DNA from: Minisyncoccota bacterium
GTDB lineage: Bacteria > Patescibacteriota > Minisyncoccia > Phycocordibacterales > SW-6-46-9
Length of the DNA: 64,000 nucleotides
Direction: 5' to 3'
Assembly (NCBI GenBank): GCA_040905385.1
Contig: JBBDRP010000002.1
Coordinates: 395,526-459,525 of the forward strand
How positions within the stretch are numbered: position 1 is the first letter of the stretch; each line of letters begins with the position of its first letter. Positions 3,306 through 53,919 of this stretch are shown in pieces. The position numbers and the translations under genes were made by a program. Under the pieces are notes generated by a model. The model was not told the DNA's origin. It searched no databases and saw only the letters and a program-made list of their open reading frames with translations.

Positions 3306-5276
3306 TTAATCACTTTCTACTAGAGAAAAATCAATCTCCCGATTATCGATGTTGACCTTGGTTAGCTTGACCTTTACTTCATCACCGAGGGTAAAGGTGC
3401 GGCCACTGTCACGACCAACGAGGGCGTAGTTTTCCTTATCCAGCTCGTAGTAGTCATCGTTGAGGGAACGCATTGATACCATGCCATTGGCCAGCGTCTT
3501 CTTCTCTTCGACGTAGAAGCCGCGCTTGGAGATACCACTGATAACGGCCGTAAACTCCTCGCCAATGTGATTCTCCATGTACTCAGCACGCTTGAAGGAG
3601 ATTGAGTCACGCTCGGCATCCATCACCTCACGCTCGCGCTCAGAGGCGTGCTTGGCAGCTGATTGATAGAAGTTGAATTCCTGCGGTGGGACCGGAATAT
3701 CATTCAGGTGCTTGTAGAGCAGGCGATGAACCAGCAGGTCGGGGTAGCGACGAATTGGGGAGGTGAAGTGGGTGTAGTACTCGAAAGCGAGACCGAAGTG
3801 ACCCTTGTTGGTGGTCTCATAAATCGCCTTGTCCATAGTGCGGATTACCTCGGTATTGACGAGGCCTTCTTCGGCCTTACCCTCGGCCTGGTTAAGCAGG
3901 GCGTTAATGTCGCTGTGGGTGATTTCGGCACCTTTCTCTAGCTCGAAGTCGTAACCAAGGGCACGCAGAAAGACTCCAAGCTCAGCAAGCCGGTCGCGGT
4001 CAGGAAGCCCGTGAACACGATAAACAAAGAAGTGACGCTCATCCTCATCCTCGGTCATACGGTGAATTTCCTTGGCAATCTCGCGGTTGGCCAGAAGCAT
4101 GTACTCCTCGACGAGCTCGTGAGTATCCATGTGTTCCTTTTTGGTAATAGACAGCACCGTACCATCATCGGTAATGTCGAACTCGACCTCTTCGCCGTGA
4201 AAGTTGATGGAGCCGTTAGAGAATCGCCGGTTTCGGAAGGTCTTGGCGATGTTATTTAAAATTAGCAGTTCATCAGAGAATTCATCATTTCCTGAATCAA
4301 TCTGTTTCTGCGCCTGTTCGTAGGTGAAGCGCTTGTCTGAGTGGATGATGCCTTTTCCAAACCAGCGATCCAGCACATTTCCTTCTGGAGAAACCGTAAA
4401 TTCAGCCGAGAAGGCCAGGCGATCAAGATTAGGGTTCAGCGAACAGAGATCATTAGAAAGAATCGGTGGTAGCATCGGAATCGTTCGGTCAACGAGGTAA
4501 GCAGAGAAGGAGCGCTTACGGGCCTCGCGATCGATGGCGGTGCCGGGCTGAACAAAGTGGGATACATCGGCGATGTGAACACCGATTTTGTAGTTTCCGT
4601 CCTTCTGCCGCTGAAAGGTGATGGCATCATCAAAGTCCTTGGCGGTTACGGGGTCGATGGTCATCGTGAGGACATCGCGAAAGTCACGCCGCTCGGAGAG
4701 GTCGACGTCGTCCATGCTCCAGTCCTCAAGCTCGGCAGCCTCGGCCATAACATCATCAGGGAAGTCAACTTCGATACCTTTGTCCATCAGAATCGATTTA
4801 ATTTCGACTTCATGATCGCCCTTTGGGCCGAGTACCTCAATAACCTTTCCGGCTGGATTGCGATCCTTGTTAATGTCGCCCCAGTCGGTAATCTCTACTA
4901 GTACCTTGTGACCGTCGGGAATTTCCTCATTCGTACGGACGAAGATGTCCTGGTACATGTGCTTTTTATCCGGCAGTAGGAAGTAGGTGTTGCCGTTTCG
5001 CTGGATAGTACCCACAAACTGTGTGCGAGCCCGGCGAACGACTTCGACAACCTCACCAATCATCAGGTCACCACGGTCATTCTTGATATCCGGTCGAGGC
5101 TTAACTTTTACGGTGTCGCCGTCGTAGGCATTGTTGATGTAGTCGGTCGGGATGACTAGGTCAGCAACATCCTTAACATCCTCTGGGTCGTGGGGAGGGG
5201 TAACGAACCCAACGCCGCTGCCGATGGTGGAGATAACTGTCTCAAATATATCTTCAGAATTTTTTTCTTGTGTCAT
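3306..5276 (-). CDS. rnr: Ribonuclease R (RNB family 3'-5' exoribonuclease with C-terminal S1 domain)
   Basis: 656 aa; cold-shock-like N-terminal domain, central RNB catalytic domain, C-terminal S1-like domain (GEEFTAVISGISKRGFYVEE..GMVSMRSL). Confidence 0.9.
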   Translation of the reverse strand: MTQEKNSEDIFETVISTIGSGVGFVTPPHDPEDVKDVADLVIPTDYINNAYDGDTVKVKPRPDIKNDRGDLMIGEVVEVVRRARTQFVGTIQRNGNTYFLLPDKKHMYQDIFVRTNEEIPDGHKVLVEITDWGDINKDRNPAGKVIEVLGPKGDHEVEIKSILMDKGIEVDFPDDVMAEAAELEDWSMDDVDLSERRDFRDVLTMTIDPVTAKDFDDAITFQRQKDGNYKIGVHIADVSHFVQPGTAIDREARKRSFSAYLVDRTIPMLPPILSNDLCSLNPNLDRLAFSAEFTVSPEGNVLDRWFGKGIIHSDKRFTYEQAQKQIDSGNDEFSDELLILNNIAKTFRNRRFSNGSINFHGEEVEFDITDDGTVLSITKKEHMDTHELVEEYMLLANREIAKEIHRMTEDEDERHFFVYRVHGLPDRDRLAELGVFLRALGYDFELEKGAEITHSDINALLNQAEGKAEEGLVNTEVIRTMDKAIYETTNKGHFGLAFEYYTHFTSPIRRYPDLLVHRLLYKHLNDIPVPPQEFNFYQSAAKHASEREREVMDAERDSISFKRAEYMENHIGEEFTAVISGISKRGFYVEEKKTLANGMVSMRSLNDDYYELDKENYALVGRDSGRTFTLGDEVKVKLTKVNIDNREIDFSLVESD

Positions 5277-6257: not shown

Positions 6258-6704
6258 ATGTTACGAATAAGACTTTCAAGAGTAGGCCGAAAACACGACC
6301 CATCCTATCGGATGATTGTGACGGAAAAAGGTCGTGGGCCACAAACAGGAAATTATGTTGAGCAGGTTGGTACGTATGATGCTCGCTCAGACGAGCACAA
6401 CCTGAAGGCTGATCGTATTACGCACTGGATTTCAGTGGGTGCGCAGCCAAGTGATACGGTACACAACCTTCTTCTGAAGGCTGGTGTTATCAAGGGTGAG
6501 ACAGTTAATCCGCTGCCAAAGAAAACGCCGATTGTTTCTGAATCTGACCCCGTAAAGGAATCTGAAGATTCCCACGAGGCAGGAGAAGAAGAGGAAGCAG
6601 AAAAAGCTGATGAAGAATCTGATGACGAAGATAACGAAGCCGTGGAAGCTGAGGAAGATAATGAGGACGACGATACTGACGAAGAAGAGGAGGAAAATCA
6701 GTAG
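6258..6704 (+). CDS. rpsP: 30S ribosomal protein S16 with long poly-acidic C-terminal extension
   Basis: MLRIRLSRVGRKHDPSYRMIV..ITHWISVGAQPSDTV is canonical S16; internal ATG at 6258 within ORF 6210..6704; C-terminal about 65 aa are D/E-rich and carry the 41-nt element shared with udg. Confidence 0.85.
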   Translation: MLRIRLSRVGRKHDPSYRMIVTEKGRGPQTGNYVEQVGTYDARSDEHNLKADRITHWISVGAQPSDTVHNLLLKAGVIKGETVNPLPKKTPIVSESDPVKESEDSHEAGEEEEAEKADEESDDEDNEAVEAEEDNEDDDTDEEEEENQ

Positions 6705-6738
6705 AAAGTCGAAAGTCGAAAGTTGAAAGTTGAAAACC
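6704..6738. repeat. Heptamer tandem repeat array (GAAAGTC x2, GAAAGTT x2, GAAAACC)
   Basis: Five 7-nt units starting in the rpsP stop codon and running into the terminator stem. Confidence 0.7.
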
Positions 6739-6837: not shown

Positions 6838-7209
6838 ATGGCAGAATCACACGAAGATAAAGATTTTTTAGAATTTACAGTTAAGCATATTGTTGATAAC
6901 CCTGAAGCGGTGAACGTAGATCGAACCGTTGATGAGATGGGGGTACTAATGACACTGGATGTTCACGCTGATGACATGGGAAAGGTGATCGGCCGCAATG
7001 GTAATACTGCCAAGGCGCTACGCACGCTTCTACGGGTCGTGGGAATGAAGAATCAGGCTCGCGTTAACCTCAAGATTCGTGAACCAGAAGACCGAGAGGA
7101 TGCACCCGAAGCACCAGAATCATCTGCTCAAGACGCTGATGAAAAGGATGAAAAAGCGGATGACTCAGATACTTCTGTTGATGATGCGATGGAGGAATTG
7201 AAATCCTAG
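6838..7209 (+). CDS. KH-domain RNA-binding protein (YlqC/UPF0109-like) with acidic C-terminal tail
   Basis: VIGRNGNTAKALRTLL GxxG KH motif; conserved position between rpsP and trmD; C-terminal 45 aa acidic. Confidence 0.75.
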   Translation: MAESHEDKDFLEFTVKHIVDNPEAVNVDRTVDEMGVLMTLDVHADDMGKVIGRNGNTAKALRTLLRVVGMKNQARVNLKIREPEDREDAPEAPESSAQDADEKDEKADDSDTSVDDAMEELKS

Positions 7210-7230: not shown

Positions 7231-7260
7231 AAAAGCCGACCTTATTGGCCGGCTTTTTTA
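7231..7260. terminator. Bidirectional terminator between the KH gene and membrane gene 7242..7691
   Basis: aaaagccgacc-ttat-tggccggctttttt. Confidence 0.6.
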
Positions 7261-7691
7261 TGTTTATTTGCAGATTCTATAATCCTTCTTTTACCGAGCA
7301 TATACCCAATCCACGCACTCATAATTGTACTCGTAAATATTACAACAAGATAGGCTACAGCTAATTCTTCAAAACGTGAGAAGATATCAATAGGTAAGCT
7401 ACCTAGGAGAAATATTCCTAAAGGACTAAATAGTGCATACGTGGCTAAGCTTATACCCACCCATTGCTGATTTCCATCACTACTGACAAGATAAGCGAAT
7501 ACTGCAATGGAGAAAGCCATGATTAGTATAGAGATTACCGAAATTATAACAGCGATCGTCGTCATCTGTATACTGGTGATTTGAAATAAATCAGGAAATG
7601 CGAATACTTTAACAATTGCAGTGATTAACCAGATAAGAATTATAACTATTGCTGGATAAAAAGAGCCACTATGAGATTTTGAAGTTGACAT
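7242..7691 (-). CDS. Hypothetical 4-TM membrane protein (paralog A; divergent from trmD)
   Basis: 149-aa hydrophobic ORF; its upstream promoter region is about 85% identical to that of 8723..9142. Confidence 0.5.
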   Translation of the reverse strand: MSTSKSHSGSFYPAIVIILIWLITAIVKVFAFPDLFQITSIQMTTIAVIISVISILIMAFSIAVFAYLVSSDGNQQWVGISLATYALFSPLGIFLLGSLPIDIFSRFEELAVAYLVVIFTSTIMSAWIGYMLGKRRIIESANKHKKAGQ

Positions 7692-7733
7692 ACAACCTCC
7701 GGATTTAAGAGTTAAAGGTAGTTTCTGTCTTTA

Positions 7734-7762
7734 TTAATACCACTAAAATGCTATACTTGCAA
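7734..7762 (-). promoter_or_regulatory. Sigma70-type promoter for 7242..7691 (TTGCAA-17-TATTAA on the minus strand) with conserved spacer
   Basis: The same promoter, with a near-identical 17-bp spacer (ccacNaaaatgNtatac), recurs at 9185..9213. Confidence 0.5.
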
Positions 7763-7837
7763 GGTACGTGAATTCTCTACAAAATATAGAGGTTCAATCA
7801 TAATTCCTAATTCTTAAATTCTCTATTCAAAATTTCT

Positions 7838-7943: not shown

Positions 7944-8642
7944 ATGCAATTCACAATAATTACAATATTTCCTGGCATGATCAAAGCCTATACCGACGAG
8001 TCGATCCTTGGTCGGGCGCAGGCAGATGGCCACATCCAGGTCGACATCATCGATCCGCGTGACTTTGCTGAAGACAAGCACAACAGTGTGGACGCACCGC
8101 CGTATGGTGGTGGACCAGGGATGGTCATGCAGGCCGAGCCGGTGCTACGCGCTGTTGAGAAAGCGCGTAGCGAGTCGAAAGTAGAAAGTAAAAAGTCGAA
8201 AGTCGTTGTATTATCGGCGCAAGGAAAGCAGTTCGATCGTCAGATGGCAAAGGGTACGGCAACAAGTATTGAGCATCTTATTTTGATCTGCGGGAGGTAC
8301 GAAGGGATTGACCGGCGAGTAATTGAAGCGCTGGAGGCCGAGGAAGTTTCGGTAGGGCCGTACATCCTTACTGGCGGTGAGTTGCCAGCACTGATCATGG
8401 TCGATGCGACCGCTCGGTTTGTATCAGGAGTACTTGGCAATGAGGAGTCCTTGGAGGATGAGCGTAGTGCCGGCACACACGTGTATACCCGACCAGAGAC
8501 CATTACCTATGAAGGCCAGGAGTATACGGTTCCGGAGGTACTAATGAGCGGTCACCACGCCGAGATCGAGGAGTGGCGAGCCCAGCAAGCCCCTCCTTCG
8601 CACAAGGCTTCGGAAGGGCGAAGGAAGAATCAGGAATCATGA
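7944..8642 (+). CDS. trmD: tRNA (guanine37-N1)-methyltransferase
   Basis: GGGPGMVMQAEPV, ICGRYEGIDRRV and ILTGGELPALIMVDA motifs; carries an in-frame heptamer-repeat insert encoding SESKVESKKSKV. Confidence 0.9.
   Translation: MQFTIITIFPGMIKAYTDESILGRAQADGHIQVDIIDPRDFAEDKHNSVDAPPYGGGPGMVMQAEPVLRAVEKARSESKVESKKSKVVVLSAQGKQFDRQMAKGTATSIEHLILICGRYEGIDRRVIEALEAEEVSVGPYILTGGELPALIMVDATARFVSGVLGNEESLEDERSAGTHVYTRPETITYEGQEYTVPEVLMSGHHAEIEEWRAQQAPPSHKASEGRRKNQES
8177..8204. repeat. Heptamer repeat array inside the trmD CDS (GAAAGTA GAAAGTA AAAAGTC GAAAGTC)
   Basis: Four in-frame 7-nt units of the GAAAGTN family encoding KVESKKSKV. Confidence 0.7.
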
Positions 8643-8722: not shown

Positions 8723-9142
8723 TTATTTTTGGAGATTATTTCCAATCCACATAGAGATAATCCAACCTGAAATTGCGTAAAGATTAAATATCAATCCTGG
8801 TAGGTAGTTGGCACCTACACTTGGTAATGTAAAAAGTGCTGCTGGAACCAAAAAGCTGACAACTATAAGATTAATAATTGCAGTTCGAGGTCTTTCTTTG
8901 CATTTCCAAAATCCGATCATTAGAAATGGAAAAGATGCAGTAAGAAGAGAAAAGCTTACAACCACTGGATTCTCTATACTTACGTTAAGAAGTGTGGAAA
9001 TTAATGACTCTTCTACTCCGGTAAGTAGCTGTACTAGAATAAGAAAGAATCCAATCATAAGCCAAGCTACTAGTATTACTGCAGGAACAAGAAGTATCTT
9101 TTCAACGGGTATCAACTGATTTTGTTTCTCGAAAGAAGTCAT
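8723..9142 (-). CDS. Hypothetical 4-TM membrane protein (paralog B; divergent from mnmA)
   Basis: 139-aa hydrophobic ORF; promoter region conserved with paralog A. Confidence 0.5.
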   Translation of the reverse strand: MTSFEKQNQLIPVEKILLVPAVILVAWLMIGFFLILVQLLTGVEESLISTLLNVSIENPVVVSFSLLTASFPFLMIGFWKCKERPRTAIINLIVVSFLVPAALFTLPSVGANYLPGLIFNLYAISGWIISMWIGNNLQK

Positions 9143-9184
9143 AAGACCTCCTTTTTTAAGAGTGAAAGATTATATCTGTATTTA

Positions 9185-9213
9185 TTAATACCACGAAAAT
9201 GATATACTCGCAA
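9185..9213 (-). promoter_or_regulatory. Sigma70-type promoter for 8723..9142 (TTGCGA-17-TATTAA on the minus strand)
   Basis: tttattaataccacgaaaatgatatactcgcaaggta matches the 7731-7765 block. Confidence 0.5.
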
Positions 9214-9278
9214 GGTAAGTAGGGTTACTTGCATTGGTAATAAAACACCTTCATGATTCCTCATTCTTATCTCTTAAT

Positions 9279-9311
9279 TCTTTCTACTTTAGACTTTTAA
9301 CTTTCTACTAA
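9279..9311. repeat. Heptamer repeat array (reverse orientation: TAGTAGAAAGTTAAAAGTCTAAAGTAGAAAGA) 5 nt upstream of the mnmA start
   Basis: Reverse complement of GAAAGTN-family units directly abutting the ATG at 9316. Confidence 0.6.
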
Positions 9312-9315
9312 TTTT

Positions 9316-10440
9316 ATGCTACCTAACTACATACAAAATATAGAAGATAAAGAAAACACGCACGTCTTCGTGGCAATGAGCGGCGGGGTGGACTCGTCTG
9401 TAGCCGCTTACCTCTTGAAGGAAGCTGGCTTTCAGGTGACTGGCTGTTTTATGACGGTCTGGCAGCCACCATTTCTTGACTGCTCGATGGAGAGCGAGCG
9501 ACAGGATGCGATGCGCGTGGCTGCTGAGCTCGAGATTGACTTTCAGACGGTGGATCTGGCTGAGGAGTACAAGACTCGTGTGGTCGACTACATGATTGCC
9601 GAGTACAAGGCGGGGCGGACACCTAACCCAGATGTGATGTGCAACGGTGAGATTAAATTTGGTGCTTTTTTTGACTGGGCGATGGATGAGGGAGCAGACT
9701 ATGTGGCGACTGGACATTATGCGCGGCTTCGCAAGTCGAAAGTAGAAAGTGGAAAGTCAAAGGTTGAATTACTAGCCGGAGTTGATGAGAAAAAGGATCA
9801 GACGTACTTTCTGTGGCAGGTACCAACCGATCGACTAGAAAAAACGATGTTTCCCATCGGTCATCTAGAGAAGTCACAAGTACGCGAAATCGCGACCGAA
9901 GCTCAGCTGCCAGTGGCAGACAAAAAAGACAGCCAGGGTCTGTGCTTTCTTGGCCAAGTTGACATGCCGACATTCCTCGCCGAGTTCACCGACCTGAAAC
10001 CCGGAGACGTGCTTAATGAAGCCGGCGAGGTCATCGGTACCCATGATGGGGCGGTGGTCTATACCATCGGCCAGCGACATGGTTTTAATATCCAGAAAAA
10101 GATGCCAGACAGTGGTCCGTGGTATGTCACCGACAAAGATACCGAAGCTAATACCATTACCGTCACCGAGGACAATACCATCGGTGGCGCCACCTTCAAC
10201 TGTCGTGAGATGAAGCTTACAAAGACAAACTGGATCAACGGCCAGCCCGAGGGTCGGCTGCAGGCACGAATCCGCTATAATCAAACGTTGCAGCCGTGTG
10301 AAGTTATGGAGAAGGACGGAGAAGTCGTTGTCACCTTTGATGAACCACTGCGGGCAGTGGCTGTGGGGCAGTCGTGTGTGGTTTATGATGGAGAGCACTG
10401 TCTGGGGGGAGGAATCATTGACATAATAAATATAGTGTAG
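9316..10440 (+). CDS. mnmA: tRNA-specific 2-thiouridylase
   Basis: PP-loop VAMSGGVDSSVAAYLL, catalytic Cys motifs; in-frame heptamer insert encoding KSKVESGKSKV. Confidence 0.9.
   Translation: MLPNYIQNIEDKENTHVFVAMSGGVDSSVAAYLLKEAGFQVTGCFMTVWQPPFLDCSMESERQDAMRVAAELEIDFQTVDLAEEYKTRVVDYMIAEYKAGRTPNPDVMCNGEIKFGAFFDWAMDEGADYVATGHYARLRKSKVESGKSKVELLAGVDEKKDQTYFLWQVPTDRLEKTMFPIGHLEKSQVREIATEAQLPVADKKDSQGLCFLGQVDMPTFLAEFTDLKPGDVLNEAGEVIGTHDGAVVYTIGQRHGFNIQKKMPDSGPWYVTDKDTEANTITVTEDNTIGGATFNCREMKLTKTNWINGQPEGRLQARIRYNQTLQPCEVMEKDGEVVVTFDEPLRAVAVGQSCVVYDGEHCLGGGIIDIINIV
9738..9765. repeat. Heptamer repeat array inside the mnmA CDS (GAAAGTA GAAAGTG GAAAGTC AAAGGTT)
   Basis: Same family as the arrays at 1932, 6704, 8177 and 17259. 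Confidence 0.7.
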
Positions 10441-12089: not shown

Positions 12090-12230
12090 TTGATTTATCA
12101 TTCATGGTATTGAATCGGTCACAGGTATACTAAAGTTGAACTATTTTTCACTTTTCACCCGGGCATAAAATCGTAGATTTCATTTTTGCGAAGAAAAATG
12201 TTTAACCGGGTAAACTTTTAACTAATTATC

Positions 12231-13027: not shown

Positions 13028-13288
13028 ATGTCTACAACGTTTTCAGATGCAGTTCTGGAATATGTTGCCAAAATACCAGCCGGTGAGGTGCGAACCTACG
13101 CCGAGGTCGCGGCGGCCTGCGCATCTCCGTTAGCATCACGAGCGGTAGGGTCGATTATGGCTAAAAATTTTAATCCTCAGGTTCCATGTCACCGGGTGAT
13201 TCGATCCGACGGTACGGTCGGAGACTATAATCGCGGTGGATCAGCGGCCAAGCGGAAGATTTTAGAGCGCGAAGGTGTTATGCTTTAG
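13028..13288 (+). CDS. ogt: Short methylated-DNA-protein-cysteine methyltransferase DNA-binding-domain protein (Ogt/ATL-like)
   Basis: VPCHRVI active-site motif in an 86-aa single-domain protein. Confidence 0.7.
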   Translation: MSTTFSDAVLEYVAKIPAGEVRTYAEVAAACASPLASRAVGSIMAKNFNPQVPCHRVIRSDGTVGDYNRGGSAAKRKILEREGVML

Positions 13289-13300
13289 GCGTCCAGGAAT

Positions 13301-13324
13301 CTAGGCTTTAGGCCTTTAGTAATT
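13301..13324. repeat. Octamer repeats in reverse orientation (CTAGGCTT TAGGCCTT TAGTAATT)
   Basis: TAGG-phased 8-mers, complementary orientation of the CCTA array 20 bp downstream. Confidence 0.5.
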
Positions 13325-13343: not shown

Positions 13344-13391
13344 CCTAGTAACCTAAATTCCTAGCAACCTAACTTCCTAGTAACCTAGACC
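13344..13391. repeat. Octamer tandem array CCTAGTAA CCTAAATT CCTAGCAA CCTAACTT CCTAGTAA CCTAGACC ending at the pcm start codon
   Basis: Six phased 8-nt units CCTARNNN ending at the base before the ATG at 13392; a sister array lies at 27662-27701. Confidence 0.7.
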
Positions 13392-14039
13392 ATGAATACT
13401 ACTGATATTTTTGCCGACAACTGGAAATCACACAATGACCTCGTCGATCGTCTTAAAGATGAGACGGGGGTACTGGAGACGCCGCGTATAGAGAGAGCCT
13501 TCAGAGAGATAGACCGCCGTGACTTTGTGCGTGATATGTATGATGTCGAGGCTTATGAAGACTATCCTATTCCGATTGGACAGGAGCAGACGATTTCGCA
13601 ACCTACGACGGTGGTCTACATGCTTGAGCTACTGTCACCACAAGAAGGTGATACGATTCTTGATGTTGGCTGTGGTTCTGGCTGGACGACAGCGCTGCTT
13701 GGAGAGATTGTTGGTCGACATGGTCGAGTGGTGGGCATGGAGATAATCGAGGAGCTGGCTGAATTTGGACAGAAGAATCTGGCTCGTTACGAGCTTCCGC
13801 AAGCTGAGATTCGTCATGGCAATCCACTCAAGGAAAAGCAGCCAGAAGCGCCGTTTTCGCGTATTCTGGTCTCGGCCGGAACTAATCATGTACCGAAAGC
13901 CTTAACCGACCAGCTGGCTGTAGGTGGAGTGATGGTGATTCCGATTGATGAGTCATTAGTGCAAGTTAAAAAGAAGTCTGATGATGAGCTGCTCCAGAAG
14001 GAGGTACCAGGCTTTGTTTTTGTACCGCTTCAGGAGTAA
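13392..14039 (+). CDS. pcm: Protein-L-isoaspartate O-methyltransferase
   Basis: TISQPTTVVYMLELL and ILDVGCGSGWTTALL SAM-binding motifs. Confidence 0.85.
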   Translation: MNTTDIFADNWKSHNDLVDRLKDETGVLETPRIERAFREIDRRDFVRDMYDVEAYEDYPIPIGQEQTISQPTTVVYMLELLSPQEGDTILDVGCGSGWTTALLGEIVGRHGRVVGMEIIEELAEFGQKNLARYELPQAEIRHGNPLKEKQPEAPFSRILVSAGTNHVPKALTDQLAVGGVMVIPIDESLVQVKKKSDDELLQKEVPGFVFVPLQE

Positions 14040-14044
14040 AGATT

Positions 14045-14722
14045 ATGAGCAACAAAGATAAAACTGCGGCATTAGAGGCGCTAAAGGACGAGGTGGTTGC
14101 CTTGGAAGCGTCGCCGCTGTATACGTACCGTCAGGAGCACGGTTATCTACCGGTGCTGGGTGAGGGAAGTCACGATGCTGATATTATGTTCATCGGTGAG
14201 GCTCCCGGAGAGAGCGAGGCCAAGACCGGTCGGCCATTTTGCGGACGAAGTGGGAAGCTTCTGGATGAGTTTTTGGAGCATATTAATCTTGATCGTGCGG
14301 ATGTGTACATCACCAATGTGCTGAAGGATCGCCCGCCAGAGAATCGTGATCCGCAAACGGACGAGATTGAGATTTATACGCCTTTTTTACGCCGGCAGAT
14401 CTCAATCATCCAGCCGAAGGTGATTGCTACGCTAGGTCGTTTCTCGATGGAGTTTATTGCCGATGAGTACGGTATCGAGCTGGATGGTACGATTACCCAG
14501 GTACGGGGTAAGATTTACGAGATAGACCCCGGTACCACGTCGTCTGACCCCGTAGAGGAATCAGAAAATTCCCACGAGGCAGGTGACGACGGCTACGGGG
14601 CAGGGGAGGATGGCCAGACGATTACCTTTATCCCGCTGTTTCATCCGGCCGTAGCGTTGTATGATGGTTCCAAGCGCGATGTGCTGAAGGAGGATTTTGA
14701 AACATTGGCCGACTTCACATAA
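14045..14722 (+). CDS. udg: Uracil-DNA glycosylase, family 4
   Basis: GEGSHDADIMFIGEAPGESEAKTGRPFCGRSGKLL and FIPLFHPA motifs; in-frame insert SSDPVEESENSHEAGDDGYGAGEDGQT before the HPA motif. Confidence 0.8.
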   Translation: MSNKDKTAALEALKDEVVALEASPLYTYRQEHGYLPVLGEGSHDADIMFIGEAPGESEAKTGRPFCGRSGKLLDEFLEHINLDRADVYITNVLKDRPPENRDPQTDEIEIYTPFLRRQISIIQPKVIATLGRFSMEFIADEYGIELDGTITQVRGKIYEIDPGTTSSDPVEESENSHEAGDDGYGAGEDGQTITFIPLFHPAVALYDGSKRDVLKEDFETLADFT

Positions 14723-16700: not shown

Positions 16701-17270
16701 ATGAGATTCGCGATACAAGGTGGACCGGGGAGCTTTTCGGCCGAGGCCGGTGGTCGCTATGCAGATGACAATGACCTGACGCTGGAGCTTGATTACCGCT
16801 ACACCAGCGAAAATGTTCTTACGGCGGTTGAGGAAGGCTCGGTAGAGCAGGGGCTGATAGCGATTGAGAACGCCACCGGTGGCGTAGTGTATGAATCAAT
16901 CGAGGCGCTGGCCGAGCATCGCTGCCGGATTCTACACTTCCTGAATATCTTGGTGGTGCATGCGCTGCTTGTTCGGCCCGGTACTTCGATAGATACCATT
17001 GAATGCATCATCTCGCATCCACAGGCACTTAAGCAGTGTGAGGATACGCTAGCCACACGATTCGCCGATATTCCTACCGAGGTAGGGAAGGGTGAGGCGG
17101 TCGATCAGGCTACGGCTGCCAAGCAGCTGGCTGAGGGGAAACTGCCGGCAACAACGGCGGTGCTGGCCTCTCGTGTCTGCGCTGATCTGTATAATCTAGA
17201 GATCGTTGCCGAGAACCTACAGGATATCGAGGAAAACTATACGACGTTTTTGGTAGTCGAAAGTCTATAA
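16701..17270 (+). CDS. Prephenate dehydratase-like (PDT catalytic domain only, no ACT domain)
   Basis: MRFAIQGGPGSFSAEA..AIENATGGVVYESIEAL resembles the PDT N-terminal region; 189 aa. Confidence 0.4.
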   Translation: MRFAIQGGPGSFSAEAGGRYADDNDLTLELDYRYTSENVLTAVEEGSVEQGLIAIENATGGVVYESIEALAEHRCRILHFLNILVVHALLVRPGTSIDTIECIISHPQALKQCEDTLATRFADIPTEVGKGEAVDQATAAKQLAEGKLPATTAVLASRVCADLYNLEIVAENLQDIEENYTTFLVVESL

Positions 17271-17288
17271 AGTAGAAAGTCAAAAGTT
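17259..17288. repeat. Heptamer repeat array (GAAAGTC TATAAAGTA GAAAGTC AAAAGTT) spanning the stop codon of 16701..17270
   Basis: GAAAGTN family; followed by GAGTGAGTGAAACG, which resembles the start of the structured repeat units. Confidence 0.6.
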
Positions 17289-17456
17289 GAGTGAGTGAAA
17301 CGAAGGAAATCCAGCCCTAGCGTGCTGGGGCTGGATAAATGGGGAAATTTAAGGTGAGTTACTTTACAATACTGTATTTATTGTGTATTATAATAATCAG
17401 AAGCACCAAAGTTACTTAAACAATAATCCAAACTAATCAAACCAGAGAGGTTTGTT

Positions 17457-25292: not shown

Positions 25293-25400
25293 GAAACTGT
25301 TTAGAGTCTCTAACAGTTTCTAAGTTTGCAAAGCAGTCAAAAATACGGTACTCTTTGACTGTTTGAAATACATTTTATGCGTTAACGTAAATATATTAGA

Positions 25401-27584: not shown

Positions 27585-27606
27585 GTTACTATTACGCTAG
27601 CTTATG

Positions 27607-27633
27607 TATGAAAAATATACTGTATTTTTCATA
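27607..27633. promoter_or_regulatory. Perfect 11-bp inverted repeat TATGAAAAATA-TACTG-TATTTTTCATA upstream of grpE-dnaK-dnaJ (non-CIRCE operator candidate)
   Basis: Perfect palindrome about 70 bp upstream of the grpE ATG; no CIRCE (TTAGCACTC-N9-GAGTGCTAA) present in the operon region. Confidence 0.5.
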
Positions 27634-27661
27634 CGAACAAGGTCATCTAGTGTCACAAGAT

Positions 27662-27701
27662 CCTAGCACCCTAATTTCCTAAAAACCTAATCTCCTAGAA
27701 T
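27662..27701. repeat. Octamer tandem array CCTAGCAC CCTAATTT CCTAAAAA CCTAATCT CCTAGAAT ending 1 nt before the grpE start codon
   Basis: Five phased CCTARNNN units; same family and same position relative to the ATG as the array 13344-13391. Confidence 0.7.
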
Positions 27702-27702
27702 T

Positions 27703-28320
27703 ATGGCGGATACTGAGGATAAAGAAACACAGCAAGATCCTGAAGAAAACGCAACTGTCGACGCTGAGACTGATGGTGAGTATGTTATTGAGGAAGAGAA
27801 TGATGGAGATCATACCGACAGCGATAATCAGTCAAAAGACACTGTCAGCCGACTGAGAGAGAAGCTGAAGCAGTGTGTATCTGAAAAGCAGGAGTATCTT
27901 GATGGTTGGCAGCGGGCCAAGGCCGACATGGTTAACACACGTAAGGAGTTTGCAAGGGAGCGTGAGCGGATGAAGGAACGCACAACCGAGGAGGTGATTG
28001 CCTCGATTCTACCAGTCCTAGACTCATTTGAGATGGCTTTTGCTGATAAGGACAAATGGAATGAGGTTGAGGAGCAGTGGCGATCAGGAGTTGAGCATAT
28101 ACACACGCAGCTCGTTAATGTGCTCAAGTCACATGGTGTTGAGTCAATTATTCCCGGCGAGGGCGATGCTTTTAGTCCACAGCAGCATACATCGGTCGAT
28201 ACGATGGCTGCAGCGAGTGCGGATCAGGATGATACGGTGGCTCGCTGTGAGAAGACTGGTTACCGTATCGGTGATCGCATCATCCGCAGTGCAAATGTTG
28301 TGGTTTATAAATCAGAGTAG
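27703..28320 (+). CDS. grpE: Nucleotide exchange factor GrpE
   Basis: Coiled-coil N-terminus, SILPVLDSFEMAF, C-terminal beta domain GYRIGDRIIRSANVVV. Confidence 0.85.
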   Translation: MADTEDKETQQDPEENATVDAETDGEYVIEEENDGDHTDSDNQSKDTVSRLREKLKQCVSEKQEYLDGWQRAKADMVNTRKEFARERERMKERTTEEVIASILPVLDSFEMAFADKDKWNEVEEQWRSGVEHIHTQLVNVLKSHGVESIIPGEGDAFSPQQHTSVDTMAAASADQDDTVARCEKTGYRIGDRIIRSANVVVYKSE

Positions 28321-28365: not shown

Positions 28366-30252
28366 ATGAGCAAAATTCTCGGAATTGATCTCGGAACAAC
28401 CAACTCAGCCTTTGCTATTTTTGAAGGTGGAGATCCAAAAATTTTAGAAAATGCCGAAGGAAATCGTACAACACCGTCAGTGGTGGCGATGTCTAAGAAT
28501 GATGAGCGATTGGTCGGGCAGCTAGCGAAACGTCAGGCTGTTACCAACCCAGAAAATACTATTTTTGGTATCAAGCGCTTTATTGGTCATAGTTTCGACG
28601 AGGATGTAGTTGCAGCGGAGAAGGACATTGTGCCGTACGAAGTAACAGAGAGTAAAAATGGTGGTGTTGTGGTAAAGATGGGAGAGAAGACGTATCGACC
28701 AGAGGAAATTTCAGCTATGATACTCGGAAAGATCAAGCAGGATGCCGAAGAAAAAATTGGCGAAGAAATCACTCAGGCGGTTATTACCGTTCCGGCCTAC
28801 TTCAATGACTCGCAGCGAAAGGCCACCAAGGATGCTGGTGAGATTGCCGGTCTGGAGGTGAAGCGAATTATTAATGAGCCAACTGCCGCAGCCTTGGCAT
28901 ATGGCTTTAATAAAAAAGAAGACAAGCAGATCGTTGTCTTTGACTACGGAGGTGGAACCTTTGATGTCTCTGTTCTAGAGGTGGGTGAAGGTGTGGTTGA
29001 GGTAAAAAGTACTGACGGTGACAGCCACATGGGTGGTAAGGATATCGACCAGAAGATAATCAACTGGATTATTGAGGAGTTCAAGAAGGATTCAGGTATT
29101 GATATCTCCAAGGACCGTCTTGCATTGCAGCGACTAGATGAAGCGGCCGAGAAGGCCAAGATCGAGCTGTCTACTACCAACGAAAGCGAGATAAATATCC
29201 CGTTTATTACATCTAATGACTCCGGGCCACAGCACCTGATGCTGAAGCTGAGTCGTTCAAAACTTGAGCAGCTGGCCGGTGAGTTTATTGATCGCTCTAT
29301 TGATATTACGAAATCAGCCATCGAAGCCTCTCCATTCTCTAAGGGAGATATTGATGAGATTATTCTCGTTGGTGGACAGACGCGAATGCCGAAAATCTCA
29401 TCACGTGTCGAGGAGTTCTTTGGTAAGGCACCCAATAAGACAATCAACCCGGATGAGGTAGTGGCACTGGGTGCCGCGGTGCAGGGAGGAATCTTCCAGG
29501 ACGATGTGAAGGATGTACTGCTTCTGGATGTAACGCCGTTGTCGCTGGGAATCGAGACAATGGGTGGTGTATTTACCGAGCTGATTGAGGCCAACACCAC
29601 AATTCCAACCAGCCGTTCCAAGACCTTTTCAACTGCCCAGGATAATCAGACCTCAGTAGAGATCCACGTCCTGCAGGGAGAGCGCTCCATGGCCTCTGAC
29701 AATAAGTCACTTGGACGTTTTGTTCTTGAGGGAATTCCACCGGCCGCGCGCGGAAAGCCACAGATCGAGGTAGAGTTTGATATTAATGCCGATGGTATCC
29801 TGAATGTGAGTGCTAAGGATAATAACTCTGGCAAGGAGCAGTCGATTAAGATCGAGGCTAACTCGGATCTATCTGATGATGAGATTGAGAAGATGAAGCA
29901 GGATGCTGAAGCTCATGCTGATGAAGATAAAAAGAAGAAGGAGCTGATTAATACACGCAATCAGGCCGAGCAGCTCGCCTTTACCGCCGAGGAAGCGATG
30001 AAGGAAAACAAGGAGGCGATTGATGATGATACTGCCGAAGAAATCGAGGCTGATATAAAGAATCTTCGCGAAAAGAAGGAGTCAGATGATATTGATGAGA
30101 TTAAAGAGGCTACGGAAAAGCTTTCGAAATCTATGCAGAAAATTGGTGAGGCGATGCAGCAGAAGGCCGAGGCTCAAGAGGATAACGATAAGGAAGGTGA
30201 TGTTCGTGATGCTGAGGTGGAGGATGATGATGACAGCAAAGACGAAAAATAG
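28366..30252 (+). CDS. dnaK: Chaperone DnaK (Hsp70)
   Basis: [28 protein letters not shown]; acidic C-terminal tail. Confidence 0.95.
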
Positions 30253-30466
30253 GTCGTTCGCATCCCACTTTCCAAGATGCACATATCGAATTCCCAGCGG
30301 GAATTCGCACTCAGTCTCGCCAGCATATTCCGCGCATGCGGAACCATGCATATGCTGGCTCCGAAGGCATCATGGAAAGGAGATGCTCACTTTAAGGTCA
30401 CCACGTACAATGAGTATAATTAATTTACTTGCTAACTGCTAAGCGCTAGCAGCTAAAAGCTCAATC

Positions 30467-31528
30467 ATGTCAAAAGACTATTACAAGATATTAGGAGTTG
30501 ATAAGGACGCTTCGCAGGCGGATATCAAGAAGGCGTATCGCAAAAAGGCGCACAAGCACCACCCGGACAAGTCGGATGGTGACGAAGACGAGTTCAAGCG
30601 CATCAGCGAGGCATACAGTGTGCTCTCTGATGAGGATAAGCGAGCCAAGTATGACCGTTTTGGATCTGACTTTGATCAGGCTGGTGCTGGTGGATTCGGC
30701 GGCGGCTTTTCTGGATTTCAGCAGGCAGGTGGGGCGCAGGGCTTTAATATGGGTGATATCTTTTCTGAATTCTTTGGTGGCGGTGCGCGTACAGCCACCA
30801 AGCAAGCGGTTGGTAATGATGTGCAGGTTGATACCGAGCTTACTTTCAAGGAGTCAGTGTTTGGCACGACCAAGACCATTTCTCTTAGTCGCCAGACGAC
30901 CTGCAGTAAGTGTGGAGGCGCGCGTACAACCGATGGGGAGATGAAGGAGTGTGACCGCTGTGAGGGCTCTGGACAGGTAGAGACGGTTCAGCAGACGATG
31001 CTGGGCCGGATCCAGACAACACAGGCATGTAAGAAGTGCTTTGCCACCGGCGAGATTCCGGAGAATCCATGCTCTCGGTGTGGTGGTTCCGGTGTTACCA
31101 AGGAGTCTGAGGAGATTGATATCAAGATTCCGGCTGGTGTTTCCGATGGAGAGATGGTGCGAATTCGCGGTAAAGGTGAGCAGGCGCCAGGCGGTCAGGC
31201 TGGCGATCTGTATGTAAAGCTGCATGTTGGTGGTAGCAGTGAGTTCCAGAAGGATGGCCAGAATCTAAAAAAGCAGCTGACTATCAGCATGAGCGAAGCT
31301 GCGCTCGGAACCAAGAAGAAAATCAAGACACTGGATGACGGTGAGGTGACACTGAAAATCCCGGCCGGCATCACCCACGGAGAGCTTTTGAAAATAAGCA
31401 GCAAGGGAATTCCTGATCGTCGTGGCAGTCGTGGAGATCTTCTGGTGCGTATTCGTGTTAACATTCCCGATAAGCTGACCAAGGAGCAGAAGGAGCTTTT
31501 GAGTAAACTCCAAGACACCGGTTTATAA
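30467..31528 (+). CDS. dnaJ: Chaperone DnaJ
   Basis: J domain with HPD; four CxxCxGxG zinc-finger repeats. Confidence 0.9.
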
Positions 31529-53159: not shown

Positions 53160-53783
53160 TTAAACAGCCGTCGCTGAAACTTTGTTTTTCGAAATGATAT
53201 CATCTGTCATTAGACTAACTACACGCTGCGTTAAGGCAGTATCCAGATGTTGGATTACATCGATGGTTTTCATACCAAATCCGGAAGTTAATTCATCAAC
53301 TGATTCAATGAATATCTGTGAAAGTCTTTCGTTGGTGGGATTATTTTCCTTCCAACTGAATTTCTTTGACTCAGTACATCTATTTATCTCAGACTTGATT
53401 CGACTCAAATGAAAGTGAATTTGTTTGATTTGTATCTCAGTGCAATTTTCTGGCAGATAACTACGTCGCTTCTGTAGAGAACCAAGTTGCTTGATTGCAC
53501 TCGAAGAAAAAACATTTTCTGGATAAATTAAAACTTGCTTACCCTCTCCATTTAATCCACTTCTATACTTATCTGATTGAATCACCAGAAGATCTGAAGG
53601 TAGTAATCTGACCTCGAAGTCGATTATTTCAGGCATGCGAAATTTCTTGTGACACAAATATTGGTTTATCAGCCCAGCACCGCAAATATAACTTATAAGA
53701 TGGTAATTGTTTATTTCAAACATCCGTGCAGAGATAATAATATCTGCTGCGGTGGGGTTATACTTCATACGAAGCTTGTTCAT
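53160..53783 (-). CDS. Hypothetical AT-rich protein in the conserved rpmF-upstream (yceD/DUF177) position
   Basis: 207 aa, no recognisable motif; directly upstream of rpmF on the same strand, where DUF177/YceD usually sits; markedly AT-rich; perfect 29-bp tandem duplication in its promoter region. Confidence 0.3.
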   Translation of the reverse strand: MNKLRMKYNPTAADIIISARMFEINNYHLISYICGAGLINQYLCHKKFRMPEIIDFEVRLLPSDLLVIQSDKYRSGLNGEGKQVLIYPENVFSSSAIKQLGSLQKRRSYLPENCTEIQIKQIHFHLSRIKSEINRCTESKKFSWKENNPTNERLSQIFIESVDELTSGFGMKTIDVIQHLDTALTQRVVSLMTDDIISKNKVSATAV

Positions 53784-53861: not shown

Positions 53862-53919
53862 TATTTTTTATACGATATTCGTAATGTAAGTATTTTTTAT
53901 ACGATATTCGTAATGTAAG
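53862..53919. repeat. Perfect 29-bp tandem direct repeat (TATTTTTTATACGATATTCGTAATGTAAG x2)
   Basis: The second copy encodes the last 7 codons plus stop of rnhB (minus strand); the first copy is an exact duplicate in the 53160..53783 promoter region. Confidence 0.8.

Follow-up and report, generated by a model that had tools for sequence, protein, structure and literature searches.

Four genes in the 64,000-nt stretch of DNA that we have analyzed (the window) are preceded by short direct repeats with a period of 7 or 8 nt that run up to the start codon. The arrays before pcm and grpE are built of CCTARNNN, that before dnaJ of GCTARNN and that before mnmA of CTTTNNA, and all four may be leader elements of one phased direct-repeat class. 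Our preferred reading is that the arrays form a transcribed single-stranded platform acting at translation initiation, a view that we hold tentatively, at somewhat less than even confidence. The window is part of a MAG from an ultra-small bacterium of the Paceibacterota (Parcubacteria), its GrpE being 100% identical to a protein encoded on a 784-kb contig of a "Candidatus Paceibacterota bacterium" MAG. Its gene content is housekeeping, with ribosomal proteins, tRNA synthetases, cell-wall genes and the alpha subunit of DNA polymerase III.

The two CCTARNNN arrays were placed by direct reading. They and their surroundings are as follows.

13284-13319, minus strand: inverted degenerate CCTAR-like set, TAGG-phased on the plus strand
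13344-13391, plus strand: six CCTARNNN units, with the 3' end of the array flush with the pcm ATG at 13392
13392-14039, plus strand: pcm, protein-L-isoaspartate O-methyltransferase (Pfam PCMT, 1.2e-53)
14045-14722, plus strand: UDG-family gene 3' of pcm (Pfam UDG, 1.4e-29)
27662-27701, plus strand: five CCTARNNN units, then T, then the grpE ATG at 27703
27703-28320, plus strand: grpE (Pfam GrpE, 4.3e-35)
28366-30252, plus strand: dnaK (Pfam HSP70), with dnaJ (Pfam DnaJ) next

The units of the pcm array are, in order, CCTAGTAA CCTAAATT CCTAGCAA CCTAACTT CCTAGTAA CCTAGACC, and those of the grpE array are CCTAGCAC CCTAATTT CCTAAAAA CCTAATCT CCTAGAAT. The original prediction of a six-unit array ending at the pcm ATG and a five-unit array just before grpE is thus confirmed, the second ending 1 nt before the ATG of a gene that Pfam identifies as GrpE, followed by HSP70 and DnaJ. 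Tandem Repeats Finder assigns to the pcm array a super-period of 16 nt with the super-unit CCTAGYAA-CCTAANTT (89% matches), and the same super-unit describes the grpE array with 79% matches. On direct reading no two adjacent CTAR units are identical in either array. A three-unit CCTARNNN pattern has seven matches in the window, all of them within the pcm and grpE arrays, compared with 0.00 in 100 shuffles, and a two-unit pattern has nine compared with 0.18 in shuffles. The last CTAR core lies at a constant position, -7 to -4 from the AUG. Direct reading reveals no ATG, GTG or TTG within the pcm and grpE arrays, and the CTAR arrays carry TAA or TAG every 8 (or 7) nt, which places stop codons in all three frames. 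The pcm and grpE open reading frames therefore cannot begin further upstream.

On the minus strand the inverted set reads CTAAAGG CCTAAAG CCTAGATT CCTGGACG CCTAAA. The set runs across the stop codon of an MGMT-like ORF of 86 aa (13028-13288), and the spacer between this ORF and pcm is 103 nt long. A TAGG-phased inverted set had been predicted here and does exist, with a span of about 13284-13319 and not 13301-13324. We considered a hairpin between this set and the first three pcm units and rejected it; its z score is -1.06, and the set is missing at the related locus L208.

A scan for 4-mers recurring at a fixed period gave the arrays at dnaJ and at mnmA. The features at dnaJ and mnmA are the following.

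9280-9315, plus strand: 7-nt phased CTTTNNA array, flush with the mnmA ATG at 9316
30415-30420, plus strand: TATAAT, likely a -10 box, 10 nt 5' of the dnaJ array
30431-30466, plus strand: 7-nt phased GCTARNN array, flush with the dnaJ ATG at 30467

The dnaJ units are GCTAACT GCTAAGC GCTAGCA GCTAAAA GCTCAATC and the mnmA units are CTTTCTA CTTTAGA CTTTTAA CTTTCTA CTAATTTT, leaving 0 nt to the mnmA ATG if the CTAATTTT unit is counted. The GCTARNN and CTTTNNA patterns, and the reverse complement of the latter, AAAGTNN, are each expected 0.00-0.05 times in shuffles. The architecture first noticed at two genes is therefore real at pcm and grpE, but it is not confined to them. That it is a shared leader element and not a product of chance is upheld.

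The reverse-complement family is found at other positions.

6704-6735, plus strand: AAAGTNN x4.5 (reverse complement of CTTTNNA), beginning at the rpsP stop codon
8173-8205, plus strand: AAAGTNN x4.7 inside trmD, encoding SKVESKKSKV in a variable loop
9733-9757, plus strand: AAGTNGA x4 inside mnmA, encoding KSKVESGKSKV
17260-17289, plus strand: AAAGTNN units across the stop codon of prephenate dehydratase (ORF 16701-17270), with a hairpin next

A terminator hairpin lies 3' of the array at the end of rpsP, and in L208 this array is interrupted by an insert of about 55 nt. The array inside trmD has one base different in L208. Its recent insertion into trmD is ruled out, as the length of the loop is unchanged and SKVESKKSKV is retained among TrmD homologues down to 59% identity. 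In the mnmA leader a run of 27 nt that includes CTTTAGACTTTTAACTTTCTACTAA is identical in L208, compared with 81% identity for trmD DNA.

The sequence AGTATAAT is invariant 10-25 nt 5' of the GCTA-phased dnaJ leader in the window and in L211 and L213, both of which have such leaders at the equivalent dnaJ position. A -10 box here would likely put the whole dnaJ array within a 5' UTR of about 40 nt. A full promoter is not called at dnaJ by a consensus scan, there being no -35 box that reaches 4/6, and the same scan finds no promoter upstream of the pcm or grpE array. The idea that the repeats are themselves promoters, or mark leaderless mRNAs, was rejected, with no sigma-70-like site on the plus strand near the arrays and no -10-like hexamer at -12 to -7 of pcm or grpE.

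The gene order rpsI-grpE-dnaK-dnaJ is retained in relatives, and in the closer subclade the grpE array is kept at the equivalent site.

L213/L215 grpE leader: aCTAGAAT CCTAAATT CCCAGTAA CCTAATTT CCTAGTTT ATG
L211 grpE leader: aCTAAAGT CCTAACTT TCTAGCCT ATG
L216-218 grpE leader: TCCTGAGT TCCTGATC TCTAGTAA TCTAGCTT GCTAACAC ATG

We aligned the grpE repeats across four lineages using the ATG as the only anchor. Within the last 24 nt before the ATG, 8 of 9 positions of the CTA cores are invariant, compared with 1 of 15 positions in the spacers (Fisher p=1e-4). No nucleotide separates the last unit from the ATG at pcm of the window or in L208, L211, L213 and L216. The orthologous pcm array is present in L208, where two of its five cores have decayed and the inverted TAGG set is absent; L208 and L211 belong to one assembly (GCA_040904005.1), and the L208 TrmD is 86% identical. 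Across lineages the arrays have between three and six units. At L121, L124, L125 and L127, where GrpE identity is about 66-73% across part of the protein, there is no grpE array, and the rpsI-grpE spacers are short (16-53 nt). The pcm genes of L219-L222 similarly have no array though Pcm is 67-80% identical, and these genes are either coupled to an MGMT-like gene or have a TATAAT of their own. As to phase variation, the units are imperfect, and the organism's only other contigs are 100% identical to the window. This distribution indicates that the arrays were gained in particular lineages and, where present, have been maintained, with selection visible on the core and on its phase relative to the AUG.

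To place the arrays among Parcubacteria, we assembled the window and about 80-83 loci (637 kb) from a metagenome scan with GrpE alignment, and scored as an array four or more units with a common 4-mer core at a fixed period. Of the arrays so scored, 32 have a period of 7 nt and 5 a period of 8 nt. The remaining periods that are not multiples of 3 give at most about one array each, the Markov control giving about 0.2 per period, and the arrays at periods 9, 12 and 15 are coding repeats. The original prediction had named arrays scattered without bias to 5' UTRs as the outcome that would count against it. We find instead that 22 of the 37 arrays have the ATG of a same-strand ORF, called heuristically, within -4 to +18 nt, against a baseline of 10.6% (p=7e-13). 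A further three have an ORF ATG nearby on the opposite strand.

The Parcubacteria arrays precede rpsM, rpsK, rpsD, rpoA, rplQ, rplM, rpsI, grpE, dnaK, dnaJ and mnmA, a list in which enrichment of a gene class is not readable because the loci are centered on grpE. At four loci (L134, L168, L133 and L201) the array is the entire intercistronic spacer within a conserved ribosomal-protein operon. Such an array must be transcribed, and it cannot be a stand-alone promoter. The cores vary from genome to genome (CTAC, AGTA, TTAG, AATT, TACT, AACT and others), and neighboring arrays within one genome have a common core family. Some of the Parcubacteria arrays, such as those of CTACAAT and AACTTCC, contain no stop codon.

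A scan for four CCTAR units in one genome per species gave at least 120 loci in many phyla, with 30 of 80 among the matches listed falling in Bacteroidota. A few of the matches listed are contamination in the form of algal telomere repeats. For 121 such arrays in other genomes, again among the matches listed, we counted start codons of ORFs of at least 100 aa within 15 nt of the array, finding 16 in the CCTA sense and 3 in the TAGG sense. The genes 3' of the arrays in other phyla are diverse among the matches listed. As to whether the downstream genes are stress or repair genes, a question raised in the original prediction, the arrays show no such restriction; they also precede ribosomal-protein genes and mnmA in Parcubacteria and diverse genes elsewhere. 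A heat-shock or repair regulon across taxa was accordingly rejected as a general rule and kept as a local possibility, and a small proteostasis regulon may yet exist within the subclade.

The array genes lack the usual signal for ribosome binding. The absence of a canonical Shine-Dalgarno sequence had been predicted for pcm and grpE, and GGAG, GAGG and AGGA are indeed missing from both of these leaders, as they are from those of dnaJ and mnmA. In the Parcubacteria loci Shine-Dalgarno-like 4-mers precede 36 of 688 genes compared with 0 of 19 array genes, and G content is 8.3% in array leaders compared with 14.9% in other leaders. Upstream of the 48 non-array genes of the window GGAG and GAGG are the sole enriched 4-mers (8 genes compared with 2.1 expected), and where a gene does have a Shine-Dalgarno site, it is probably still recognized by this organism's ribosome. 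Single CCTA and CTAA motifs are not enriched upstream of the same 48 genes, and we rejected these as a general ribosome-binding motif of the organism. The low use of Shine-Dalgarno sites in the window and in the 688 genes agrees with the report by Tsurumaki et al. 2022 (PMC9297842), in which an anti-Shine-Dalgarno motif was detected in no more than 48% of Parcubacteria. The view that Parcubacteria hardly use Shine-Dalgarno pairing, and that the arrays stand in for the Shine-Dalgarno site, is thereby supported.

Folding of the UTR in silico, which the original prediction had called for, leaves the start codon unpaired and is no better than that of shuffles. For the array with the start region the folding energy is -0.1 to -9.6 kcal/mol (z -0.1 to +1.2 relative to shuffles), and the full spacers give z scores of -1.06 and -1.36, with the start codon unpaired in the centroid structure. 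An RNA thermometer of the ROSE or fourU kind was rejected, as no hairpin occluding the start codon is better than shuffles. At gathering score, Rfam 15 matches only two tRNA-Ala genes in the window, and an Rfam E-value search of the dnaK-dnaJ spacer gives no match.

Taken together, the strand bias, the arrays internal to operons, the -10 box at dnaJ and the constant distance from core to AUG argue that the arrays act on the transcript beside the initiation site. Recognition at the level of RNA had at first been argued from a phasing that is off the helical repeat. That argument is weak alone; the orientation count (16 versus 3), the filled operon spacers, the invariance of AGTATAAT in three lineages and the phased cores in four point to a strand-specific role at the RNA level beside the start codon.

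In the mechanism that we prefer, a tract that is G-poor, unstructured and without a Shine-Dalgarno sequence would offer a CUA-R core every 8 nt, and so might serve as a periodic single-stranded platform; three units of the CUAR repeat would read (CCUAGUAACCUAAAUU)3 in RNA. A single-strand RNA-binding factor could cover the tract one unit at a time, and load the 30S subunit at the AUG or gate it there. A KH domain reads 4 nt, and the strict period of 7-8 nt matches the footprint of one OB-fold or KH domain. Candidate binders would be an OB-fold protein, either bS1 or a cold-shock protein, each domain of which binds about one heptamer, or else a protein of the KH type; KhpA is encoded in the window at 6838-7209. 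The bS1 of Parcubacteria has three to four domains (Tsurumaki et al. 2022, PMC9297842). The ribosomal-protein and chaperone genes downstream suggest that a positive effect is to be preferred. We infer the transcription of the arrays, their action in translation, the identity of the binder and the sign of the effect.

Several observations stand against the platform. For a generic landing pad without structure a conserved core would be superfluous, and a sequence-specific factor is hard to reconcile with three cores in one genome and different cores across genomes. The arrays are labile, and the pcm and grpE orthologues in sister lineages do without them. The decay of two pcm cores in L208, the enrichment of GGAG and GAGG but not of single CCTA or CTAA motifs before other genes, and the lack of a called promoter upstream of the pcm and grpE arrays also count against it. 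Members of the repeat family also lie in 3' UTRs and in coding regions, as expansion at the DNA level would give.

If the cores are instead read by a dedicated protein, an oligomeric regulator resembling TRAP or HutP would bind three to six CUAR units of the RNA and cover the start codon. We regard this as unlikely, and have the same opinion of its extension, in which the regulator would tie the translation of pcm, of grpE-dnaK and of dnaJ to stress from protein damage, replacing HrcA/CIRCE in the subclade. Within the window and the contigs of its relatives, CTAR arrays with three or more units phased at 7 or 8 nt are found only before pcm, grpE and dnaJ, along with the inverted set adjacent to pcm, as a regulon of this kind would predict, but for the window this restriction is seen within 64 kb of a 784-kb genome. 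The core is kept while the spacers vary, and the HrcA/CIRCE element TTAGCACTC-N9-GAGTGCTAA has no match in the window at up to three mismatches. Arrays of one family at related genes elsewhere (TTAGAGT at grpE and dnaK in L179; ACTAC at rpsM, rpsK and rpsD in L165) would also fit a regulator, but these arrays are chromosomal neighbors, so that local copying explains the sharing equally.

The targets of TRAP and HutP in Bacillus are phased GAG or UAG triplets in mRNA leaders, with short non-conserved spacers, and they overlap start sites. Several TRAP targets overlap the Shine-Dalgarno sequence or start codon and block initiation, and TRAP needs 9-11 triplets. Yet the spacing is 2-3 nt for TRAP and 4 nt for HutP, compared with 5 nt between successive UAR triplets in the CCTAR arrays of the window, which fits neither protein. 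In the dnaJ array the UAR triplets are 4 nt apart as for HutP, but they are mostly UAA and not UAG. Pfam and NCBIfam scans find no MtrB or HutP among the ORFs of the 64-kb window, and no other candidate protein was identified among them. The sister-lineage orthologues of pcm and grpE that have no array also weigh against a regulator.

Neutral or near-neutral replication slippage, generating interrupted microsatellites that survive where they are harmless, in leaders, 3' UTRs and tolerant loops, is in our estimation a little less probable still. Among the matches listed, perfect octamer microsatellites account for many of the CCTAR arrays in other phyla, and in the window one family occupies 5', 3' and coding positions. 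The variation of copy number from three to six, the absence from sister lineages and the decay of cores in L208 are also what slippage would give. It does not account for the restriction to periods 7 and 8, for the bias to the sense orientation, for arrays that end right at the ATG in long spacers, or for invariant cores beside drifting spacers. Moreover, the mnmA leader is conserved above the neighboring coding DNA, and the lack of identity between adjacent CTAR units disfavors slippage that is ongoing.

A more far-reaching idea, which we offer as speculation and think distinctly improbable, is that phased-repeat leaders constitute a programmable post-transcriptional code in Parcubacteria. 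Every core family would have a single-strand RNA-binding protein of its own as reader, one subunit to each 7-8-nt unit, and the families would in this way delimit translational regulons. As an equally speculative reading of that code, CUAR might denote the proteostasis regulon of pcm, grpE-dnaK and dnaJ, replacing HrcA/CIRCE, and the AAAGUNN tracts in 3' UTRs might be decoys or pairing partners.

There is slightly less again to recommend a DNA operator, in which a transcription factor, perhaps a heat-shock or damage repressor, would polymerize on the repeats and block RNA polymerase. The dnaJ array does lie downstream of a conserved -10 box, an inverted set does lie beside the pcm array, and the operators of CtsR are direct heptad repeats. 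However, an operator does not explain the strand bias relative to the gene, nor arrays that fill operon-internal spacers where no promoter is expected; with a period of 8 bp, neighboring sites would not face the same side of the helix, and L208 does not retain the inverted set. Least probable is an alternative mRNA-rRNA pairing of the CUAR cores with a changed 3' tail of 16S rRNA or another exposed 16S segment, for although the last core lies at a constant distance from the AUG, cores differ by genome and the anti-Shine-Dalgarno is missing in about half of Parcubacteria (PMC9297842), the enrichment of GGAG and GAGG alone in the window means that the canonical anti-Shine-Dalgarno is probably present, single CCTA and CTAA motifs are not enriched, and there are three cores in one genome.

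A translational platform has its nearest parallel in the TAACTGA heptamer direct repeats of marine Beggiatoaceae, some cyanobacteria and some Bacteroidetes (MacGregor 2015, PMC4679880). These occur in 2-6 copies, mostly forward, in the largest class 1 nt separates the repeats from the start codon, and Shine-Dalgarno sequences are rare; forward copies stop all frames, reverse copies lie inside ORFs, and the genes are diverse and include those of ribosomal proteins (PMC4679880). S1 or Csp was proposed as the binder, cold-shock proteins binding one heptamer each (PMC4679880). The arrays of the window are similar in having four to six head-to-tail units in the sense orientation that end 0-1 nt from the ATG without a Shine-Dalgarno sequence. 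Their CTAR members likewise stop all frames, and trmD and mnmA contain the reverse family AAAGTNN within their coding regions. In contrast to TAACTGA, which is one exact heptamer genome-wide, only a core of 4-5 nt is constant here, the spacers vary and the CCTAR period is 8; there are several core families per genome, cores differ between genomes, and the host belongs to the Parcubacteria. Going beyond TAACTGA, conservation of core and phase at orthologous sites is seen for the present arrays.

Other parallels are looser. Leaders that are unstructured and G-poor promote 30S binding in the S1-dependent A/U-rich and CA-repeat enhancers and in the Shine-Dalgarno-independent initiation of Bacteroidetes. 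Unlike the present arrays, S1-type enhancers have neither strict 7-8-nt phasing nor a conserved core. The cyanobacterial STRR heptamers and the repeats at Nostoc recF and recO are contiguous and no more than 100 nt away from a start codon or promoter, and the recO repeat, GAC(C/T)AAT x8, overlaps the start codon (bioRxiv 10.1101/2022.06.06.494920). Deletion of the Nostoc repeats changed reporter output, and the authors proposed an unidentified binding partner and discussed both the promoter and translation as points of action (bioRxiv 10.1101/2022.06.06.494920). Units, phylum and the perfection of units differ from those of the present arrays, and there is no sign of a common origin. Our literature search found no paper linking heptamer or octamer repeats with Patescibacteria. 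By analogy with these systems, the arrays look like an undescribed local variant of the poorly understood heptamer-repeat leaders.

For the way in which ribosomes locate start codons in bacteria poor in Shine-Dalgarno sequences, a recurrent phase-locked cis-element at ribosomal-protein and chaperone genes is a concrete and testable candidate. The arrays connect the scattered reports of heptamers in Beggiatoaceae and cyanobacteria, which suggests a general solution by way of single-strand-binding proteins, rather than a peculiarity of a single lineage. In Parcubacteria genomes the arrays identify genuine start codons, and they could be used as portable expression elements in Shine-Dalgarno-poor organisms.

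Within the window, the spacer between dnaK and dnaJ contains an element that is predicted to fold strongly, with a minimum free energy of -59.9 kcal/mol and a z score of -5.0. It is placed here with the other local features of the window.

30260-30386: structured element of about 130 nt in the dnaK-dnaJ spacer, comprising an outer stem and two hairpins.
27605-27635: perfect inverted repeat of A and U only, TATGAAAAATA-TACTG-TATTTTTCATA, between rpsI and the grpE array.
8173-8205 (in trmD) and 9733-9757 (in mnmA): heptamer DNA repeats in coding DNA, encoding (K)SKVES(K/G)KSKV.
12167-12187: motif of about 40 nt, AAAATCGTAGATTT(C/T)ATTTTT(G/A)C(G/A)AAGAAAAATG, upstream of a PD-(D/E)XK gene.
53862-53919: perfect 29-nt tandem duplication, TATTTTTTATACGATATTCGTAATGTAAG x 2, in the spacer preceding ORF 53160-53783, which is on the minus strand.

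All three helices of the dnaK-dnaJ element are kept in L211, a locus of GCA_040904005.1, with base pairs changed on both sides. Thus GAATTCCC/GGGAATTC in the window becomes GGATTCCC/GAGAATCC in L211, and GCCAGCATAT/ATATGCTGGC becomes CACCGATACAT/ATGTATCGGT. The element is present in a shorter form in L213, a locus from another genome, and a search of Rfam gave no match to it. Lying between dnaK and the dnaJ promoter, it could serve as a terminator or a processing site, or represent an unknown RNA.

The inverted repeat between rpsI and grpE would make a poor terminator, because it contains no G-C pairs and is not followed by a run of U. It could be a protein-binding palindrome; it is absent from the relatives examined. 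The spacer between rpsD and rpoA (25330-25400) contains a conserved hairpin, AAACAGTCAAAAATACGGTACTCTTTGACTGTTT, and downstream of it a leader that is also conserved. Both are also found upstream of rpoA in three comparison loci (L124, L125 and L127), and the element is nearly identical across the four lineages, the other spacers of which cannot be aligned.

Homologues of TrmD with as little as 59% identity still contain the peptide encoded by the trmD repeat, SESKFESQKSKV being one example, and thus the period-7 DNA repeat has persisted as coding sequence. Around these genes lie two small, paralogous membrane-like ORFs on the minus strand (7242-7691 and 8723-9142), inserted antisense between rpsP-khpA, trmD and mnmA, for which Pfam returned no matches. 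Their upstream regions (7692-7770 and 9143-9215) are near-identical, reading TTGC(A/G)AG...TATTAATAAA..., and contain the strongest Shine-Dalgarno sites (GGAGG) in the window.

The CTTTNNA array is missing in two relatives, in which the palindrome TGTTATATAACA occurs two or three times upstream of mnmA (L219, 325-390; L221, 378-451). At these loci mnmA is preceded by an element of another kind, one that resembles an operator. In L208, also from GCA_040904005.1, the membrane ORF and mnmA diverge from a spacer that includes a G-rich heptamer array, GGTGTAN x 8 (~6925-6990). Next come ATTCNNA x 4 and then the CTTTNNA array, so that arrays of three distinct heptamer families follow one another.

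The motif of about 40 nt occurs once in the window, and in L208 (~4505-4560) it is inserted in the middle of the AAAGTNN array at the 3' end of rpsP. Possibly this is a small repeat, either mobile or dispersed. The 29-nt duplication adjoins the dnaE start region.

Four loci from MAGs labelled as bacterial (L022, L099, L117 and L119) contain arrays of (CCCTAAAA)n, in some cases at the end of a contig. This is the Chlamydomonas-type telomere repeat, and these contigs are therefore probably eukaryotic contamination.

The relatedness of these lineages differs from gene to gene. Compared with the window, GCA_040904005.1 has identities of 86% for TrmD, 61% for GrpE and 62% for Pcm, while the contig of L124 and L221 gives 77% for Pcm, 72% for GrpE and ~57% for TrmD. 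Such discordance suggests either that lineages have recombined or that rates are very uneven.
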